IMG/VR virus record: IMGVR_UViG_3300032046_000009 | Reading direction: 5' to 3' (one strand) | Origin: a virus | Taxonomy: Duplodnaviria > Heunggongvirae > Uroviricota > Caudoviricetes | DNA: 30,526 bases | Part shown: in pieces, positions 4,187-25,457 of the stretch | Layout of the letters: each line of letters opens with the position of its first letter | Position numbering within the stretch: the first letter of the stretch is position 1 | The notes under the pieces: model-generated | What the model was told of the DNA's origin: nothing | Databases searched by the model: none | The model's input: the letters and a program-made list of their open reading frames with translations, nothing else | Program-made: the position numbers and the translations under genes

Positions 4187-6127
4187 CTACGGATGAGGTC
4201 CTTGACATGATTCTTTTTTGTGTACCTCACCTTGTTTCTTCCCATCATCTGGAAGTTTAATAGGACATGGTGTTTCACTTTGTTTCTTCTCATCTTTTAG
4301 AAGTTTAATACGATTTAGTTCTTCACTTTGTTTCTTCTCATCTTTTAGAAGATTAGCGTGACATTCAAGTTCTTCAAAAAGATTTCTTCGGTAGATTTTT
4401 CCATCAAGTGAAATATGTTGAAGATAAATGTCGCTGGCACAATAGACCTTTAATCCCATTTCCCAGACTTTTTCAATCAAAGGCATAATGATTTCAACGT
4501 TGTTTATGCCAGTTCTTCCACCTTTTGTGTAAATTTCTGGCTTCATCATCCAAACGTGACCTGTCATTCCAACTTCAAAAACCACTTGTCCGTGCATTTG
4601 TTTGTCAAGTATCCAGTTATCATCAACGTAAGCGACAAATGGTTTACTATCAATTCTTTTCAGAGGACCAGCAATACCATAACCATCAATTGGAGAATCA
4701 GGTCTTGAACACATATGAAGTGGGAATCGTCTGTGATGAACAGCACCAACCCAACCCGCGTCAGGATAGTCTCTGAAAACTTCGAGATACCGCCTGATTG
4801 TTTGCATTGGAACAACCACGTCTGCGAAAAGAAACATAATATACTTGTGTTCTGGTTTCAGTTGGTCAAAGAAATAATGATAAACTTTACATAATCGTTT
4901 CCCTCTTTCGATTTTATCTGTCATAGTTTGTACTTTATTTTTTCCAGCCCTATTATTAATATAGTCGGATACAGTAGATTTTCCGAATTTCTTCAATCCG
5001 TAATCTTGCCTGACAAGTGTAAACGAATGATAGTTGTATTTATTTTTGATTTTCTTCTCGTATTTCTGAAGCATTCCCCATGTATTGTCAACGCTGTCAT
5101 TTTCGACCCAGACTAAATCAATCATTTCTTTTGGATAGTCAATATCGAGTAAACTTTGGATATACAAGTCTATCGATTGGTCTTCATTGTTAAAGGGGGT
5201 ACAGACTAAAATTGGAACATATGTCAAACACTTTATTCCGCTCAAAGCACCACCTACTATTTGTTTTTTTTCTTCTATCGGTTCGAATATGAGAATCGGT
5301 CCTTTCTTTCCGACAAACAAATTCTTGTGGAATCTTGCATCATGAGGAATATAAACTCTCAAGTCAGTAAATTGAGGAATACAATCTTCTGCCAAATCTA
5401 CCGCAAAAGCAAAATCATCCGAGTTGAGGTCTGGCATAATGTAGGATTTGCAACCGTGCTTTTCAAAGATGTCTCTTCGTATAGCGCATAAAGAGTGTCC
5501 TTGAAAGAAACATTGGAATATCCTCTGGTTTTTCTCTCTAAAAGAGGACGTTAAGAATGCATAGTTTTCAGGCATAGCACCTAGATAGATACATTTACTT
5601 CTTACGCCAAATTTATCCAAATACGGAAATGGTTCAATAATGACATTGATTGTTGGATGTTCTATTTGTTTTTCGCAATAACTACACATTAACCTTCCTG
5701 TCTTGTAGGTATTGCACATATTTGAACAACCTGAAATTGCTGGAAAATCATATGTACAAATGTCATCAAGAAGAAGATTAAGTGCGTCTTCTGAAACATA
5801 CACATCATCGGATATGAGAATTATGTGTGTGTACTCTGGGTGAAGTGCGACCCATTCTATGGCAATTTTGTGAGCCTCTACATCATTGTAGTATTTTATC
5901 CAAAGTTTGTCAACTTGTTTTAGGTTGTCGAAGCATTTCTGAACTTCTGGAAGGTCACGGGGAGAACGAATAATCATAATTGGTTTTATCTCAGAGAGTT
6001 CCAGTTTTCTAGGGCGCAAAAACTTTGAAATATCAGTCTCATTCTGGATGAAGTCCAATTTATGAAGTAAACGCTCCCATTCTCTATCGAATTGAGGGGT
6101 TTCAGATTTTTGTTGGGTTTCTTCCAT
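4187..6127 (-). CDS. Tandem GT-A (family 2-like) glycosyltransferase
   Basis: N-terminal domain with YTHIILISDD (DxD-like). Second domain with TPFNNE...LLDIDYPKEMIDLVWVENDSVDNT and FLFADVV, reminiscent of GT2/Anp1-Mnn9-like enzymes. Confidence 0.8.
   Translation of the reverse strand: MEETQQKSETPQFDREWERLLHKLDFIQNETDISKFLRPRKLELSEIKPIMIIRSPRDLPEVQKCFDNLKQVDKLWIKYYNDVEAHKIAIEWVALHPEYTHIILISDDVYVSEDALNLLLDDICTYDFPAISGCSNMCNTYKTGRLMCSYCEKQIEHPTINVIIEPFPYLDKFGVRSKCIYLGAMPENYAFLTSSFREKNQRIFQCFFQGHSLCAIRRDIFEKHGCKSYIMPDLNSDDFAFAVDLAEDCIPQFTDLRVYIPHDARFHKNLFVGKKGPILIFEPIEEKKQIVGGALSGIKCLTYVPILVCTPFNNEDQSIDLYIQSLLDIDYPKEMIDLVWVENDSVDNTWGMLQKYEKKIKNKYNYHSFTLVRQDYGLKKFGKSTVSDYINNRAGKNKVQTMTDKIERGKRLCKVYHYFFDQLKPEHKYIMFLFADVVVPMQTIRRYLEVFRDYPDAGWVGAVHHRRFPLHMCSRPDSPIDGYGIAGPLKRIDSKPFVAYVDDNWILDKQMHGQVVFEVGMTGHVWMMKPEIYTKGGRTGINNVEIIMPLIEKVWEMGLKVYCASDIYLQHISLDGKIYRRNLFEELECHANLLKDEKKQSEELNRIKLLKDEKKQSETPCPIKLPDDGKKQGEVHKKESCQGPHP
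4226..4351. repeat. Three 48-bp tandem units at the 3' end of the tandem glycosyltransferase
   Basis: Exact 30-mer TTCACTTTGTTTCTTCTCATCTTTTAGAAG at 4274-4303 and 4322-4351, with a degenerate copy at about 4226-4255. Encodes LLKDEKKQSE x2 plus LPDDGKKQGE. Confidence 0.9.
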
Positions 6128-12878: not shown

Positions 12879-15800
12879 TTATTCATCCAATTCGTCTAAC
12901 TTATCCAAGAGGTCCATAAGTTCCCGTTTGGTCATCTTCTTCTTTCTGGTCGATAGAGGTTCTATGAAAAATGAGAATGTATTATTTGAAACTATATCTA
13001 GTCCAGCAGAGGTAAAAGTCATTCCTCTTTCTGATAAGATGTTTAATGGGTCAATTCCAAATCCAACTATTTGTTCTTTAGAAAGTTGTAATTCTACTAG
13101 AGTGATTGAGTAAGATTGTTCTTTTGCTACTGCTAATTCGGTTAAAGAAGTAGATTGTGAACATTCTTTTGCTATTGCTAGTTCGTTTAGAGAAGTAGAT
13201 TGTGAATATGATTTTGCCACATCCAGTTCAGCAGTTCTATTAGAGTGAGATGACTTTCCTATTACCTTTAATTCTGAAACAGGTTTCTTTGATTCGACTT
13301 TTTGAGCTATTTGCAATTCTTTTGTTGGAATTTTCTGTTGATGGCGTATGGAAACTACTTTAAGAGCAATTACTTTGAAGTTGAAGTTACGTTCGATATA
13401 CTTTACTATTCCTTCTGAAATTCTTCTATCTATTTCCTCTGGATGACCGCCGCCGATTTTTACCTTTTCAAGTTTTACCAGCAAAACATCTATACCAGTA
13501 TTTTGGGTTATGCCAAGTTTCTCAATCAAAGAATCCACTAAATATTCTTTATTTATTTTGAGTGACGAAAGGAAAGCGTCAATGAGATAACCATTTGCAA
13601 TTTCATTTCTCTTGAACAGAACATCCAAATAATATGGAATTTCTATACCAAGTTTCTTCATTATCAAATCTGCAAGATATGTTTTAATTACACTTAATTT
13701 CTTGAGCACAACATCAATATCATAAGGAATCATTATTCCCAATTTTCGAAGAAGAGTGTCTATTGAATCGGTTTTGGTTAACCCTAATTTTTTAAAGAGA
13801 ACATCTATGTCATAAGAATATTTTGGTCTAAGTCCAAGTATCCCATATAGCCATAAAATCATTTTACCGCTATCAACTGTTCTTCCTTGTTCCATATAAT
13901 TTCCTGATGCACCAGCTAATTTATCAGCGGTGAAGAGTTGAATACAACTTGCACCAGATTCCGTAATAGAATCCCGTGCCGTTTGACCCGTCAGCCATTG
14001 CTGTGTAACAGGCACTTCAGGACCGTAAAGACATATAGCTTCAAATAGTTCTTCTTTTCCTTTTGGAAGCGTAATAGTATTAGTTTCAGTTGCAGGAGTC
14101 CACGGACCACTACCATAAGCCATATGATAATCTGGTGTTCCAGATATTACCGTATTAGCATATGAACAACTTGCGCCCTTATATTGGATTGAGTTTCCAG
14201 TCCCACCTAATGTAACTGTAATTGTTTGTGTACCAACTAACGGAGAATATTTGTACCAGAATTCCAGATAAACATTGCCATATTGGTCAGTAAATCGTGT
14301 AAGATATGTTGCATTTTGTCCACCTACTTTTACCGAAACTATATTTTGACCCGTTCTGGTTACAGCAATTACAACTAAGTTTGCATCCCCCCCAATAATA
14401 TGGGTCCAACTCCAAGAGCTTTGACCAGTAGCGCATTTTCCACTTCCATGATGGTCAAATCTAATGGTAGAAATATTCAATCGTTTTAACAAAACGTCTA
14501 TATCATAAGAACCTTCTACTCGTGATTTAGAAGTCCATGAACCAAACGCTGGTTCTGGACGAACACATTTACGATGCCAAAAAGCATCAAAGTACATTTT
14601 TTTACGTGTGGTTGCTAGAACAGCCCCAATCATAGTTCTCATAGCGTTAGTTAATTTAACACCAGTATTTGCCAGTTGAACCCCGTCTATATAAAAGTAT
14701 GTCAAATTAGTATGTTCTATTTCAAGCAGATGCCATCCTACTATACGGTTAACTGTTGAAGTTAACCATCCCGTACCATTATTATAAACATATTTAGTCG
14801 CGCTTTGAAATTCGCCCACACCTACATAACGTGCAGTAGTATTATTATCCCAAACTAGCCATCCTTCTTCTGCCAACGCTTCCATACGGTCATAGAACAT
14901 AATTGCCGTTTTCCCCATAGTTTGGTTTTGTGCAAAGCGGTTGTCAAGATACCCGTTATAGCTTGATACTTCTTGCCCACATTCTATTCCTTTTATTTTT
15001 TCGTAAACATAACTTGTATCTAATACCACTACACCATTTACAGTCCATAGTTTATCTCCACTCCCAGTTTTTAATGTTTCAAAATCATCGAACCATGAGA
15101 ATGTATTGAAGCCATTGCTAGTGGTCGTAACATTTGGATTTCCATACCAGATATAAATTGTACGATTAACTGTACTCAAATCTTCTTTGACTTCTACCCA
15201 AAATAACGCATAATTTCCATTCACTTTTTCTGCTAACCAATAATCTAAGTCAGTTTTTCCGTCCTCGCTCTTAAATCTAACATCTCCAAAATCGGTTCTA
15301 CATTCTCCATTTAAATAGACTTTGGCTCTCGTTTCATTTCCAAAGGATTCTGTGCCGTCTGTTCCATTTCCATAGTAAACTTTTATACACACGGGATAGT
15401 TTGTTCCAGCGTTACTTGCATAATTTATAGTTAAACCTTTTTTCCACATCCAATTTTGATTCACGATAATACTTAATCTTTTGAGTAGAATATCCATATC
15501 ATCGGTTCTTGTCAGTCCTAACTTTTGAAGAAGTGCATCTATAGAATCTGTAGTAGTTTGTCTCAAAGCTGTTTGAACATCTATCAGATTAGTCTTAGTA
15601 ACTCCTAATTTCTTAAACAATACATCAATTGAATCTACAACCGTCAAACCCTGTTTTTGGAGTAAAACATCTATCTGGTCAGTTATAGTTGCGGAATATT
15701 TTGAAAGTATAACATCTATCTGTTTTGCATTTGTGATTCCAAGTTTCTTAAAAAGTGTATCTACCGAATCGATTTTAGTTATGTCTAACTTCTTAAAGAG

Positions 15801-18800
15801 CACGTCTATATCATCTGTGCTTGTAAATCGTAATGCAGTAAGAACGTCTATATCGTAAGGAATTATTACCCCTAATATTTTGAGCAATGTATCTATTGAG
15901 TCTGTTGTAGTTAATCCGAGTTTCTTGAACAACACATCAATCGAGTTGGTCTTAGTTATTCCTGATGCCTCAAATAGAACGTCTATCGAATCTGTAACAA
16001 CAACGCCAATCTTTTTGAACAGAGTATCTATTGAGTCTGTAATAACAACCCCCGTCTTTTCAAATAGAGTGTCTATAGAATCTATAGAAATTAATCTTGA
16101 AGCTATTTCAATATCTATAGGATAAATTGAAGTTATCTCCAACTTCTTGAAAAGAATATCTATAGAATCAGTTTTGATAATTCCGCTCTTTTGTAGCAAT
16201 ACGTCTATTGAATCTGTTTTTGTTACTTTTAACTTCTTTAACATCACGTCTATAGAATCAGTTATCGGAATAGCCAATTTTTTAAACAAAATATCTATAC
16301 TATCTATTTTTGTAATTCCAGTTATCTTGAAAAGAATATCTATAGAGTCTGTACTTATTAATCTCGAAGCTATCTCAACGTCTATTGGATATGCTTTAGT
16401 AATCCCTATCTTCTTGAATAAAACGTCTATACTGTCTATTTTTACTATACCCCCTTTCTTGAAAAGAATATCTGTGGAATAAGTCTTTATAAGAATGAGT
16501 CTCTTGAATATAACATCTATAGAATTTGTCTTAGTTACTCCTAACTTTTTAAAGAGAGCATCTATTGAATCTGTTTTGGTTAACCCTTGTTTTGCTAGTA
16601 AAGTATCAATATCGTAAGTTATATACTTTGTAGTAATACCTGATTTTAGAATAACATCTATAGAATAAGTTTCTGTTAGACCTAACTTACCAAACAACAC
16701 GTCTATAGAATCTGTCTTGGTTATCCCTAATTTCTTGAAAACTGTATCTATTGAAGTGGTTACAGGTATTGCTACCATCTTGAATATAACATCAATTGAA
16801 TGGGAATTTTCTGTTTCTTCTTCTTCCCATGCTCCTTGTGCTGGCTCGGTTGCAATCATTTTTCGTGAAAAGAAGTCATCATGAATTTCTGGACCAAGTT
16901 TTGCACCATTATCGCATTTTCCTTCAAGATAGACATAGACATCTGTATCTGCAAGAGTGTATGCTTCGTCCGCTCTGAGATAAACTAGCCACGGGTAATC
17001 TTTATCTTGTTCATAGAAATAAATATGTCCACCGACAATCTTTATGATGACAACATCTGTTGTTGCCAAAAATGACGCACTATAAAGTGTTCCAGAGTCT
17101 TTACTTTGAATATAGATATTTCCGTCACCATAAATAAGAACACGATACCAATCAAGTTGAGTCCAAAGGTCAACATTGGTGTATTGTGTTGGAATTATCC
17201 AAAGTCCCATTTGACCCAAATTCTGAGCATTGGTAGTTCTAAGTCTAATAACACAACCAGAAGCATCAACCACGTCTGTTGAGACATACCATGCTTCGTC
17301 AGCACTTTTAAGAGCGGAGATTTCTAGTTGGTTATTTACTTCATCTACTGAGCCAAGTCCAGCCCCATCAGAATGATATTCTCCTTCGGTCCATTTTGCA
17401 TCTTTCGAGTTATCATTAAAGTTATCTCCCAAATTCCAAAGCGATGATACCGCTGGGTCACTCAAAGATGTGGCGGAACTATTCCCATAGTAAACATACA
17501 TATTGAAAGCGTCTGATTCCAAACTGTCTGGAATTTCAACCCAGAAGATTGCATAATCACTATTGGTTTTTTGTTCAAGCCAGTAATCCAAAAGAGTCTG
17601 ACCATCGCCAGTTGTGAAACGAATGTCATCAAAATCAGTCTGACAATTTGTATTACATGAGAAACAATCGTAGTCGATATAGACTCTCAAATAGTAAGTT
17701 GCTGTTGACCATGCTCCGAGAAGATAAACTGTTCGGTCACGGAATCCATTTGCATCAACGACTGTTTCGCTTAAAGCATTATGGTTGTAATAGCCGTCTA
17801 TTTGTGGGTCTAGGTCATACGTTTCAAGAGCTACAGAGTTTCCAGCAAAATCACCAGTTATAGCTCTTAATGTAAGTTTTCCAGCAGATGGTCGTGCTAT
17901 ATGAATATACATATGTGTTGTATCATGAAAGACGCATGGAACAAGAGCTTCGGTATTGGCAAATGGATTTACTATTGGGTCGCCATCAGAATCATCAAGT
18001 TGTCCATCTTTGGTCCACGGACAATCTTCTATATCAGTAGTTATAGCTCTACCAATTGAGTAAACCCCATTTTCATCGTTGCATTCATACATCATATAGT
18101 ATGTTGAACCATCTTTCATAATGCAAGGCGATGTTGTTGACATTTCATCATATGAGTGGTCTGCACCGACATCTACTGGGTCCCCAATATAGGTATAACT
18201 TCCAACCAAATTAAAATCCGAAGATATTGTGGTTTTGTAAAGTTTTATTGGACCAGACTTGCTTCCAGAAGTTGTATATCCTTGAAGAAACAGATAAATA
18301 TCCGACCCTTCTATATAAACTGTTGGGTCACGAACTCCAACCCCAGAACCAGTTAAATCTATTACACATACTGGTGTGGTCCAAGTTGTAAACGGTGGTC
18401 CAGACTTCATATAGTATATTTTATCCGTATCTGAAAACCCATCATCGCTTATACCTACCCAAACATGAAGTTCTTGACCATCCCAATAAGTTGCAGTTTG
18501 ACCAGATATGAATTCTGTCCCATCGGGTGGACTTATTGCCACACCTTCCGTAGCAAATCTAATATTTTCCCAATTACCATCGTATTTAGCAACCATTCTT
18601 TTTTGATAGTCAGTTCCCGCGCCCGTTGCTGGGTTTATTTGGTTAAATCGTCTATATGTCCAGTTTGCAAGCCAACGAGCAACTTTTCTTGAAGCTATTT
18701 GAACGTCTATTGAATCGGTTACTGTTTTTCGTACTTCTTCATTTCCCCAAGTTGAGTTGGCTGGCTCAGAAGCAACAAACGGTCTAATTTTAAATGCCGA

Positions 18801-19742
18801 AAATGTTTCTGTACCGAAACCATAAGTTGTATATGTGGCTATTATCAAGTGAACCCTGTCGGGTGTTTCAGAATTCGCTTCATTAACTCTCTGGGTTCCA
18901 TTTTCTATAATTGAAATACTTCCGCCAATTTTCTTCCAGATTTGGGATTTTGTAATAGGTACAGCACCAGATTGTTCACCAGAATAATAATCGGAAGCCC
19001 CACCTACACCACAATCAAACCACCAATGTTTGTCTCCACCCCAACTATCGCCAATATTGGCATATGCTACTCCTTTGTCAGTAACATCGTTATACGCCGT
19101 ATGATGAAGACTATGCCCAGCACCAAAAATTTCGCCGTTAACGGCAGAGTCGTGAACCAATGTAAAGGCTGTTGCTGGTGCTCCGTAAGCATGTTCAATA
19201 ATCCATGTTGTAGGCAAACTAAGTCCTGTCTTCGAGTGAAAACCAACACCATCCCACCAATGAGAAGTCGCCATGTTAGTAACTTCGAGAACATGAGTTG
19301 TAGCATTAATAGAATATACTGGTGTTCCATCCACACTTATCCATCTATTCGTATTAAGAGTCACATTGTCAAATGGGTCGCCGAATATGAAGGTGGCATC
19401 GAAGTCTGATGTTGTTGTTTGAGCAGTTTTACCATAATAAATGTAAATAGTTGCATTAGATTCTAAAGTATCATTCACTTTAAACCAGAAATAAGCAAAA
19501 TTGGAATTTGTTTTTGATTCCAACCAACAACTTAGAACGGTATTTCCATCATTGTCTGTAAATCGTACATCTCCAAAATCTGTGGCGCATTTGGTTGCCA
19601 GATTTATTTCATCATTATTAGCCGCCGCGCTATCGTAGAGAACTTTCACTCTTTTACAATAACCAAGTCCAGCACCAGCACTAGCCGTAATCAAATGGGA
19701 CTTTCTGTATGTCCAACCAACGAGCCAATTTTCACCCGACAT
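12879..19742 (-). CDS. 2287-aa modular fibre/adhesin-like protein (3 DUF2341-like modules, glycosidase-like beta-propeller, repeat shaft)
   Basis: Three copies of W-x-(Y/W)-(R/K)...C-x-TDF-x-D-(V/I)-RF...L-x-x-WL-x-(E)...FW...IY(V/I)(Y/W)YGN. Asp/Pro blade motifs (VRDPTV, TSPCIM, LVPCVF). About 39 copies of a TKTDSIDVLFKKLGI-type repeat. No obvious signal peptide. Confidence 0.8.
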   Translation of the reverse strand: MSGENWLVGWTYRKSHLITASAGAGLGYCKRVKVLYDSAAANNDEINLATKCATDFGDVRFTDNDGNTVLSCWLESKTNSNFAYFWFKVNDTLESNATIYIYYGKTAQTTTSDFDATFIFGDPFDNVTLNTNRWISVDGTPVYSINATTHVLEVTNMATSHWWDGVGFHSKTGLSLPTTWIIEHAYGAPATAFTLVHDSAVNGEIFGAGHSLHHTAYNDVTDKGVAYANIGDSWGGDKHWWFDCGVGGASDYYSGEQSGAVPITKSQIWKKIGGSISIIENGTQRVNEANSETPDRVHLIIATYTTYGFGTETFSAFKIRPFVASEPANSTWGNEEVRKTVTDSIDVQIASRKVARWLANWTYRRFNQINPATGAGTDYQKRMVAKYDGNWENIRFATEGVAISPPDGTEFISGQTATYWDGQELHVWVGISDDGFSDTDKIYYMKSGPPFTTWTTPVCVIDLTGSGVGVRDPTVYIEGSDIYLFLQGYTTSGSKSGPIKLYKTTISSDFNLVGSYTYIGDPVDVGADHSYDEMSTTSPCIMKDGSTYYMMYECNDENGVYSIGRAITTDIEDCPWTKDGQLDDSDGDPIVNPFANTEALVPCVFHDTTHMYIHIARPSAGKLTLRAITGDFAGNSVALETYDLDPQIDGYYNHNALSETVVDANGFRDRTVYLLGAWSTATYYLRVYIDYDCFSCNTNCQTDFDDIRFTTGDGQTLLDYWLEQKTNSDYAIFWVEIPDSLESDAFNMYVYYGNSSATSLSDPAVSSLWNLGDNFNDNSKDAKWTEGEYHSDGAGLGSVDEVNNQLEISALKSADEAWYVSTDVVDASGCVIRLRTTNAQNLGQMGLWIIPTQYTNVDLWTQLDWYRVLIYGDGNIYIQSKDSGTLYSASFLATTDVVIIKIVGGHIYFYEQDKDYPWLVYLRADEAYTLADTDVYVYLEGKCDNGAKLGPEIHDDFFSRKMIATEPAQGAWEEEETENSHSIDVIFKMVAIPVTTSIDTVFKKLGITKTDSIDVLFGKLGLTETYSIDVILKSGITTKYITYDIDTLLAKQGLTKTDSIDALFKKLGVTKTNSIDVIFKRLILIKTYSTDILFKKGGIVKIDSIDVLFKKIGITKAYPIDVEIASRLISTDSIDILFKITGITKIDSIDILFKKLAIPITDSIDVMLKKLKVTKTDSIDVLLQKSGIIKTDSIDILFKKLEITSIYPIDIEIASRLISIDSIDTLFEKTGVVITDSIDTLFKKIGVVVTDSIDVLFEASGITKTNSIDVLFKKLGLTTTDSIDTLLKILGVIIPYDIDVLTALRFTSTDDIDVLFKKLDITKIDSVDTLFKKLGITNAKQIDVILSKYSATITDQIDVLLQKQGLTVVDSIDVLFKKLGVTKTNLIDVQTALRQTTTDSIDALLQKLGLTRTDDMDILLKRLSIIVNQNWMWKKGLTINYASNAGTNYPVCIKVYYGNGTDGTESFGNETRAKVYLNGECRTDFGDVRFKSEDGKTDLDYWLAEKVNGNYALFWVEVKEDLSTVNRTIYIWYGNPNVTTTSNGFNTFSWFDDFETLKTGSGDKLWTVNGVVVLDTSYVYEKIKGIECGQEVSSYNGYLDNRFAQNQTMGKTAIMFYDRMEALAEEGWLVWDNNTTARYVGVGEFQSATKYVYNNGTGWLTSTVNRIVGWHLLEIEHTNLTYFYIDGVQLANTGVKLTNAMRTMIGAVLATTRKKMYFDAFWHRKCVRPEPAFGSWTSKSRVEGSYDIDVLLKRLNISTIRFDHHGSGKCATGQSSWSWTHIIGGDANLVVIAVTRTGQNIVSVKVGGQNATYLTRFTDQYGNVYLEFWYKYSPLVGTQTITVTLGGTGNSIQYKGASCSYANTVISGTPDYHMAYGSGPWTPATETNTITLPKGKEELFEAICLYGPEVPVTQQWLTGQTARDSITESGASCIQLFTADKLAGASGNYMEQGRTVDSGKMILWLYGILGLRPKYSYDIDVLFKKLGLTKTDSIDTLLRKLGIMIPYDIDVVLKKLSVIKTYLADLIMKKLGIEIPYYLDVLFKRNEIANGYLIDAFLSSLKINKEYLVDSLIEKLGITQNTGIDVLLVKLEKVKIGGGHPEEIDRRISEGIVKYIERNFNFKVIALKVVSIRHQQKIPTKELQIAQKVESKKPVSELKVIGKSSHSNRTAELDVAKSYSQSTSLNELAIAKECSQSTSLTELAVAKEQSYSITLVELQLSKEQIVGFGIDPLNILSERGMTFTSAGLDIVSNNTFSFFIEPLSTRKKKMTKRELMDLLDKLDELDE
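13060..13290 (-). repeat. Second 15-aa repeat type (ELAIAKECSQSTSL-like, about 5 units) near the fibre C-terminus
   Basis: SELKVIGKSSHSNRT / AELDVAKSYSQSTSL / NELAIAKECSQSTSL / TELAVAKEQSYSITL / VELQLSKEQ. Confidence 0.75.
13464..13829 (-). repeat. Eight degenerate 15-aa shaft repeats
   Basis: RPKYSYDIDVLFKKLGL through TQNTGIDVLLVKLEK, 122 aa. Confidence 0.85.
15468..16811 (-). repeat. 30-unit coding repeat array, 45-nt units with a 267-nt higher-order period
   Basis: Consensus TKTDSIDVLFKKLGI. Units 10, 16, 22 and 28 are 14-aa variants whose last codons fall at about 16359, 16092, 15825 and 15558, exactly 267 nt apart. Confidence 0.95.
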
Positions 19743-24899: not shown

Positions 24900-25457
24900 T
24901 TATTGACGTTTTTTACGCCCTTTTTCATCCTTTTTGATTGACTTTGCCAATTCCTTCAATGGGGGAATCTTAGTCCAATCATTAAGTTTGCTTTCTGTAG
25001 CGGCTACTATTGTTGGTTTTCCGTCAATCATTTCCATTATGTATTCTCCATAGGGGTCTGGAAGAGTGATTTTACGTGGCAAATCATAAAGTTCTGCTGG
25101 ACGTTTGCCTTCTTGAATCCATAGAATAGTTTGATAAGCACATAGAAGATTCCATATCGCCGCTATAAGATGGTTCTCATCATTTCGTCCATCGATAACT
25201 TGCGCGGCATGACGTATAGCTGAGTCCAAAAAAGACTTTACTGGCAAACCTTTTTCCCAATTTCGGTCCCCGTACTTTTCACAACCTTTCTGATAATGAA
25301 TGGCAATTGCTCGAATAACAGCCCACGGCAAAAGGTCAAACCGACCTTTCCCAATAGCCATATCTCTAACTGCACCTGTTCCAAATTCTCTACGTGAACC
25401 AGAATCCTTAATTTCATAATCAGATTTTCCTTCAGGTTCTTTTGGTGGTTTTCTCAT
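24900..25457 (-). CDS. DUF5664 / dATP-dGTP diphosphohydrolase-like protein
   Basis: REFGTGAVRD...GKGRFDLLP...KYGDRNWEKG...SAIRH...DENHLIAAIWN, the characteristic family signature. Confidence 0.88.
   Translation of the reverse strand: MRKPPKEPEGKSDYEIKDSGSRREFGTGAVRDMAIGKGRFDLLPWAVIRAIAIHYQKGCEKYGDRNWEKGLPVKSFLDSAIRHAAQVIDGRNDENHLIAAIWNLLCAYQTILWIQEGKRPAELYDLPRKITLPDPYGEYIMEMIDGKPTIVAATESKLNDWTKIPPLKELAKSIKKDEKGRKKRQ

Follow-up and report, generated by a model that had tools for sequence, protein, structure and literature searches.

The stretch of DNA treated here, called the window throughout, is 30,526 nucleotides (nt) long and comes from a virus of the Caudoviricetes (IMG/VR record IMGVR_UViG_3300032046_000009). 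All long open reading frames (ORFs) in the window lie on the minus strand. One of them is the gene for P0001, a fibre- or adhesin-like protein of 2287 amino acids, which carries a long array of tandem 14- and 15-residue units with a distinct, shorter unit at every sixth position. The array had been pointed out in an earlier note made from the sequence alone, which placed it at 15468-16811 (residues 978-1425); as delimited here, by an anchor scan and manual segmentation, it occupies 15453-16808. The gene was recognised from the ORF list, its translation, Pfam and a syntenic ortholog, P0003. The gene, the array and its marked units are located as follows.

12882..19742 (ORF 12879-19742), minus strand: gene for P0001, fibre/adhesin-like protein, 2287 residues
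15453..16808, minus strand: main array, 30 tandem units of 14 or 15 residues, residues 979-1430
16623..16673, minus strand: irregular 17-residue unit 4, six units ahead of the first joint, kept in the ortholog
16356..16397, minus strand: joint-type 14-residue unit 10, KAYPIDVEIASRLI
16089..16130, minus strand: joint-type 14-residue unit 16, SIYPIDIEIASRLI
15822..15863, minus strand: joint-type 14-residue unit 22, IPYDIDVLTALRFT
15555..15596, minus strand: joint-type 14-residue unit 28, KTNLIDVQTALRQT

P0001 comprises three DUF2341 lectin-like modules and a fourth, beta-rich one, the long array and a shorter second array, and a conserved C-terminal tail. The Pfam match to DUF2341, a concanavalin/LamG-like family, is strong (E=2.3e-48; 163 bits, against a gathering threshold of 23.4) and falls in three stretches, which are the modules flanking the array and not the array itself.

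The consensus unit of the array is K-T-D-S-I-D-V-L-F-K-K-L-G-I-T. The isoleucine of its I-D core is found at residues 983, 998, 1013, 1028, 1045, 1060 and so on to 1416, and 25 of the 29 spacings are 15 residues; the exceptions are a spacing of 17 after unit 4 and of 14 after units 10, 16, 22 and 28. The starts of these four short units are separated by exactly 89 residues (267 nt), and their common core, I-D-[VI]-x-[IT]-A-[SL]-R, replaces the I-D-V-L-F-K-K-L-G of the standard unit. Translation and anchor scan thus agree in every detail with the earlier description of 30 tandem units with a shorter one at every sixth position and an exact 89-residue period; the remark that the irregularity at units 4-5 falls on the same register is also borne out by the position of the 17-residue unit 4. 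A 104-row alignment shows that conservation of the Asp at position 6 reaches at least 90% in each of the units.

By counting, only 135 of the 27,405 ways to place four marked units among 30 give an equally spaced series (~0.5%). Because of this low figure, and because the same pattern is kept by the ortholog, the equal spacing is not chance; the pattern is real and non-random. The units have diverged at the DNA level, as the earlier note had said. Copies within the array are 60-70% alike. For the window, Tandem Repeats Finder picks up just a local 45-nt period; one of 267 nt is detected neither there nor in the locus of the ortholog (L001).

P0003, the closest relative of P0001, is 67% identical to it over the array and is its syntenic ortholog in a related virus. 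The gene order of its locus is RadA ... diphosphohydrolase, an 856-residue protein, small proteins, the fibre, MCM, LonB and sugar genes. P0003 keeps the 17-residue unit 4 and has joints at units 10, 16, 22 and 28 and a further joint two units on; joints 89 residues apart occur four times. When the six-unit blocks of the two proteins are compared, blocks A and B of P0001 match blocks A and B of P0003, block D of P0001 matches P0003 units 17-22 (0.69), and block C of P0001 has no clear counterpart. Units 23-28 of P0003 are a paralog of its own units 17-22 (0.68, against a background of ~0.55). The comparison shows that blocks of the array turn over in register.

The similarity of units in the same phase of the period points the same way. 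With the joints excluded, same-phase units of P0003 score 0.562 and other-phase units 0.472, a difference reached by 0 of 5,000 permutations, and the excess is also present at the DNA level (p=0.0014). The earlier note had held that the period is maintained by structure rather than by recent duplication. The second half of this statement stands: of the 57 residues identical between the two paralogous P0003 blocks, just 21 have the same codon, and thus the block duplication is old. The first half is made doubtful by the significantly greater likeness of same-phase units in P0003. As for the marks of a higher-order repeat, the period is conserved in the ortholog and absent from distant relatives; recent DNA identity between blocks, by contrast, is not seen in the window or in L001, given the divergence of the copies and the lack of a 267-nt period.

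The earlier note had proposed that fibre length is tuned in blocks of 89 residues. P0001 and P0003 show no 89-residue difference in length, both having three blocks after the irregular start, and no pair of relatives was found that differs by a multiple of 89 residues. The virus itself has a second fibre-like protein, P0011, of 1338 residues with ~10 array units, encoded outside the window on the same 151,756-nt contig; its neighbours are a 1787-residue protein, a GT2 glycosyltransferase and a family-B DNA polymerase. Its variants P0158 and P0159 are 100% identical to P0011 save that a single 15-residue unit is exactly duplicated in tandem (the start of P0158 also differs). This paralogous fibre varies by a single unit, and length is therefore not tuned only in 89-residue steps.

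Wherever contigs of several sediment metagenomes cover the window stretch, they agree with it letter for letter, and the same holds for contigs of four sediment runs compared with the array. Three joins in these contigs, whose sides measure just 23-26 nt, are likely to stem from paralogous arrays. Since contigs drop rare variants, they say nothing for or against 45-nt or 267-nt length variants.

The unit is not peculiar to P0001. A word-indexed search returned 19 long proteins with the repeat, and an exhaustive phmmer search of 1.84 billion representatives returned 326 clusters (50% identity) at E<=1e-3 and 193 at E<=1e-10, all of them metagenomic. For the array, no Pfam or NCBIfam family was found, no PDB chain was matched by phmmer at E<=1, and the best profile matches (E ~0.1-1) were to unrelated proteins. 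There was no match in 50,697 deposited phage genomes or in related-locus searches of viral contigs and of metagenome contigs, and an ESM Atlas feature search gave only sub-threshold leads to unnamed viral clusters. The 14/15-residue unit is a large uncatalogued repeat family without a solved relative. Three members, P0002, P0004 and P0158, carry the Joint Genome Institute (JGI) product name 'antitoxin component of RelBE/YafQ-DinJ'. Identity with the RelB/DinJ antitoxin was rejected, as TIGR02384 scores 17-22 bits against a cut-off of 45.65; because these matches are sub-threshold and lie on single repeat units, the name is a spurious transfer.

Segmentation of 156 proteins of the family, by a position matrix followed by chaining, yielded ~2,900 units. 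Of ~2,680 spacings, 1,650 are 15 residues and 859 are 14, making 14-mers about one third of the total. In logo form the 15-mer reads K-T-Y-S-I-D-A-L-L-K-K-L-G-I-T, its Asp reaching 95%; the 14-mer agrees with it over the first eleven positions and lacks the Gly of position 13. The 14-residue unit is thus an ordinary glycine-less variant of the family. The A-x-R signature of the joints is rarer, being present in 26 of 855 14-mers and 0 of 1,619 15-mers, and such units are scattered over 16 other proteins, mostly once or twice per array.

The placement of short units in the family bears directly on the suggestion that they stand at structurally required positions. Some arrays have no 14-mers (P0047, P0134) and others consist almost wholly of them (P0014, P0141); therefore the fold needs no short unit at fixed intervals, and it accepts either unit length anywhere. 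Within-array shuffling, with P0001 and P0003 removed, gave no excess co-occurrence of short units at lag 3 (z-score 0.9) or lag 6 (z -0.3) and a depletion at lag 2 (z -3.0). Across ~150 relatives the 14-mers are placed aperiodically, an outcome that the earlier note had named as counting against its model and that holds for all but the closest relative; a strict six-unit period was found only in P0001 and P0003. A three-unit sub-period of the Gly-less units was also considered. In P0001 these are units 7, 10, 12, 13, 15, 16, 22, 23, 25, 28 and 30, which form no clean period, and with no signal in the family as a whole the sub-period was rejected.

What several unrelated arrays do have is a super-period in unit similarity, at lag 3, 5, 6 or 7. 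Lag 3 is found in P0009, P0142 and P0105, lag 5 in P0117, P0035 and P0125, and lag 7 in P0060; in P0081 a 16-residue unit stands at every fifth unit. The varied lags, together with the in-phase similarity, are typical of a tandem array that expands through duplication of several units at a time and then diverges.

The structure of the array was predicted with AlphaFold2. For the monomer, the whole array with 9 alignment rows gave a predicted local distance difference test score (pLDDT) of 40.6, and 13 units with 104 rows gave 52.3; the predicted template modelling score (pTM) was 0.21-0.26. Both models, at a confidence too low to assign a fold, place a helix of 7-8 residues in every unit (unit positions 5-11) with ~8 non-helical residues between helices, a gap that narrows to 4-5 residues at the joints. 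The hydrophobic positions of the family logo, 5, 8, 9 and 12, agree with a short amphipathic helix. Where the first model is better (pLDDT 60-72), it has a one-residue beta-bridge before each helix; the region 16623-16718 of the window, units 4-5, forms a beta-hairpin in the same low-confidence model. From the logo, I-T-K-T-x-S may be a short strand, and the helix may be N-capped by the Asp and C-capped by the Gly. Foldseek against the PDB and a shape search of the ESM Atlas, both with the low-confidence second model, returned only meaningless matches, with template modelling (TM) scores below 0.3. A homotrimer prediction of units 8-20 with the 104-row alignment had a score of 0.00 and a chain pLDDT of ~45, and speaks neither for nor against a trimer. 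In direct-coupling analysis of 578 unit triplets, same-position couplings between adjacent units dominate and reflect shared ancestry or homogenisation rather than contacts. The failure of monomer prediction, for a repeat this regular, is mild evidence of an obligate oligomer.

Together, these results make it reasonably probable that the 89-residue super-period goes back to an old duplication of six units, in register, which is restricted to this viral lineage. The unit would be a short extended stretch (I-T-K-T-x-S), a near-invariant Asp and a 7-8-residue amphipathic helix usually closed by Gly. A block of five 15-mers and one I-A-S-R-L 14-mer would have been amplified in register long ago and have diverged since, giving a higher-order repeat like the super-repeats of other tandem arrays; the 89-residue period would then record how the array grew and not a spacing demanded by the fold. 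The array would serve as the long shaft, or spacer, of a giant fibre (adhesin) on the virion of an uncultivated tailed virus of archaeal type from sediments, a fibre that we infer to be oligomeric, probably trimeric, and made of helices and linkers. The six-unit period is lineage-specific and probably of modest functional weight.

Several observations weigh against this account. In P0001 itself, same-phase units with the joints excluded are not significantly more alike than others (0.539 vs 0.524, p ~0.19), and for this reason block ancestry rests on the ortholog. The six-unit register is unbroken by unit-sized indels in both orthologs despite ~33% divergence, and two non-joint 14-mers of P0003 also stand at six-unit spacing downstream; both could be signs of selection on the period. 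With model pLDDT at only 40-52, the joint units may have a structural role. As to the virion, of which P0001 is a presumed component, searches on neighbouring genes do not establish portal or capsid assignments.

If the period were under structural selection, the joints could act as hinges, or mark the ends of segments, in a trimeric fibre whose length comes in 89-residue blocks. The register, exact through four blocks in two orthologs at 67% identity, supports such hinges; the joints also lack the helix-closing Gly, the helix gap narrows at them (in the low-confidence models), and another joint-type unit is found at the boundary of modules 1 and 2. However, relatives place their short units irregularly, some arrays having none or nearly all, joint-type units are sporadic elsewhere, and P0001 and P0003 do not differ by 89 residues, the sole natural length change observed in the fibres of this virus being one 15-residue unit. 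Functional hinges are thus considered unlikely, and the reach through an S-layer glycan coat that the earlier note envisaged is speculative. A geometric origin of the period has its own attraction: in a thin monomeric solenoid or superhelix with three or six units per turn, the joints would lie along one edge. Unit similarity does peak at lags 3 and 6 in P0001 (z 2.5 and 4.1) and in P0003 (z 3.1 and 5.5), lag 3 reaches a z of at least 3 in four other arrays (P0009, P0142, P0105 and P0007/P0047), and the beta-bridges of the first model would suit such a fold. AlphaFold2 is usually confident on regular monomeric solenoids, whereas here pTM stayed at 0.21-0.26 even with 104 rows; moreover, Gly-less or short units have no family-wide order at lag 3 or 6, and the lag-5 or lag-7 periods elsewhere suit a history of duplication better than a fixed geometry. 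A solenoid is accordingly judged improbable.

Chance placement of four short units would be in keeping with a family in which such units are common and randomly placed, but it must contend with the count of ~0.5%, with the rare subtype signature that all four units share (26/855 14-mers) and with the repetition of the pattern in the ortholog, and it is very hard to credit. A further idea is of a different kind and concerns the fold. The array could be a new fibrous fold, an obligate oligomer in which very short helices alternate with T-K-T strands and are pinned by the invariant Asp, the mix of 14- and 15-mers setting the supercoil and the I-A-S-R-L units acting as programmed kinks, much as skip residues do in the myosin rod; this is speculative and, as a whole, unlikely to be right.

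The relatives bear on the putative place of the array in a virion. The domains joined to it in other members are DUF2341, Laminin_G_3, pentaxin, BNR and domains resembling carbohydrate-binding modules (CBM). Arrays begin at a median of 323 residues from the N-terminus and end 80 from the C-terminus, and are followed by one of a few conserved tails, which are shared among proteins with different heads; the array almost always lies C-terminal to lectin-like heads (DUF2341, LamG, pentaxin, CBM), with the short tail after it. One member, P0012, is encoded in a tailed-virus structural module with the order terminase, portal, HK97-type capsid protein, P0012, BppU_N, tail tube and tape measure, and the N-terminal domain of another, P0033, matches several tail-fibre PHROGs. 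These two findings uphold the fibre or adhesin context proposed for P0001. Given this context and the lectin domains that co-occur with the array, P0001 would be a virion fibre or adhesin with carbohydrate-binding heads, and the array its shaft or spacer, possibly attached through the conserved C-terminal tail. The remaining features of P0001 are these.

18684..18725, minus strand: lone joint-type unit TVTDSIDVQIASRK, residues 340-353, linking DUF2341 modules 1 and 2
14469..14513, minus strand: single standard unit downstream of module 3
13461..13820, minus strand: C-terminal array of 8 units, every one of 15 residues, residues 1975-2094
12882..13460, minus strand: conserved C-terminal tail of ~190 residues (2095-2287), with a second 15-residue repeat type and a charged terminal helix

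The lone unit between modules 1 and 2 had been noticed earlier and lies where it was said to lie. P0015 (2038 residues, with DUF2341 plus BNR) shares the tail of P0001 at 79% identity and P0003 shares it at 54%, despite differing N-terminal domains; the tail is a candidate for the virion-attachment end. A conserved tail with differing heads suggests a conserved anchor with swappable heads, the opposite of the usual tail-fibre polarity. The repeat within the tail, S-Q-S-T-S-L-x-E-L-A-x-A-K-E, is detected by Tandem Repeats Finder at 13119-13229 (period 45 nt, 2.2-2.4 copies), has more diverged copies upstream and is unrelated to the unit of the main array. At its N-terminus, P0003 has in place of DUF2341 module 1 three copies of an I-P-x-G-W-x-x-C-D-G...F-I-R-G module followed by His-rich H-x-H runs (L001:10001-11400); the module resembles tail-collar and metal-binding fibre motifs and has no match in Pfam.

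Genes near that of P0001 encode MCM, a LonB-type protease, RadA/Rad51, a primase-like protein, a dATP/dGTP diphosphohydrolase-like protein and a sugar-modification operon. The gene at 24900-25457 has a dATP/dGTP diphosphohydrolase N-terminal domain (PF18909, 3.4e-18); the gene is conserved in L001 and may point to modified DNA bases. At 4227-4355 of the window, the gene for a glycosyltransferase-like protein of 646 residues contains a 48-nt tandem repeat (2.7 copies, 85% matches).

The range of cells that a virus can reach depends on its virion fibres, and to our knowledge almost nothing is known of the fibres of uncultivated archaeal-type viruses. The present work delimits a large shaft-repeat family of at least 326 clusters that had no prior annotation, some public records being misnamed 'antitoxin'. 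Its arrays of all 15-mers, all 14-mers or both form a natural series for a possibly new fibrous fold, and the P0001 array is an example of higher-order repeat evolution within a protein-coding gene.

Of the known fibre designs, the triple beta-spiral comes to mind at once. It is built on a 15-residue pseudo-repeat and is found in the adenovirus fibre shaft and reovirus sigma1. The array resembles it in having a 15-residue period (25 of 29 spacings), in its presumed place in a viral attachment fibre and in a conserved Gly per unit. It differs in that the beta-spiral has two beta-strands per unit, whereas one helix per unit is predicted for the array, with a hydrophobic pattern of i, i+3, i+4, i+7. 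On account of the single helix and of hydrophobic positions 5, 8, 9 and 12, the adenovirus-type spiral is excluded as a model, and the analogy drawn in the earlier note is set aside; the low-confidence models are not all-beta, and no PDB sequence matched.

The phi29 protein gp8.5, a helix-turn-helix supercoil, offers another comparison. It is a virion-surface fibre thought to aid attachment, and has tandem units of a short amphipathic helix and a polar turn; in sequence its stem reads as ~13-residue units of the type N-x-x-x-L-x-x-L-L. The array, whose own fibre role is presumed, agrees with this design of tandem short helices and short polar turns in the secondary structure of the low-confidence models. 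It departs from gp8.5 in its unit of 14/15 rather than ~13 residues, its T-K-T stretch and invariant Asp, its far greater length (30 units) and its higher-order period. As a homolog the gp8.5 stem was rejected (hhalign probability 0.02%).

The putative strand ahead of the predicted helix recalls the beta-layers of alpha/beta coiled coils (Hartmann et al. 2016, PMC4786415). These are known from phage tail fibres and from trimeric autotransporters; the HylP1 tail fibre (2C3F) and Tcar0761 are examples. Their motif is an h-T-K-x-D/E strand directly ahead of a helix, as in MATKDD, FVTKTE and LATKVE; the canonical beta-layer has three beta residues, with Lys/Arg at e, Asp/Glu at g and a hydrophobic residue at a, and calls for spacings such as 6, 9 or 13 residues and for a hydrophobic residue two positions after the Lys (PMC4786415). 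Such elements are frequent in phage fibres. The I-T-K-T-D/Y of the array resembles this motif. Unlike it, the array has a spacing of 14/15, a Gly before the strand and one extra residue ahead of the first core residue; membership was rejected, as neither the register nor the spacing of the motif is found.

For the hierarchy of the array, rather than its unit, a comparison is with the super-repeats of other tandem-repeat proteins. Nebulin has 35-residue modules arranged in seven-module super-repeats, and titin also has super-repeats. In these proteins, as in the array, simple units are grouped into higher-order blocks recognisable by variants at particular positions. The super-repeat of nebulin, however, fits the period of its partner filament and is conserved family-wide, whereas the six-unit period of the array is limited to one viral lineage.

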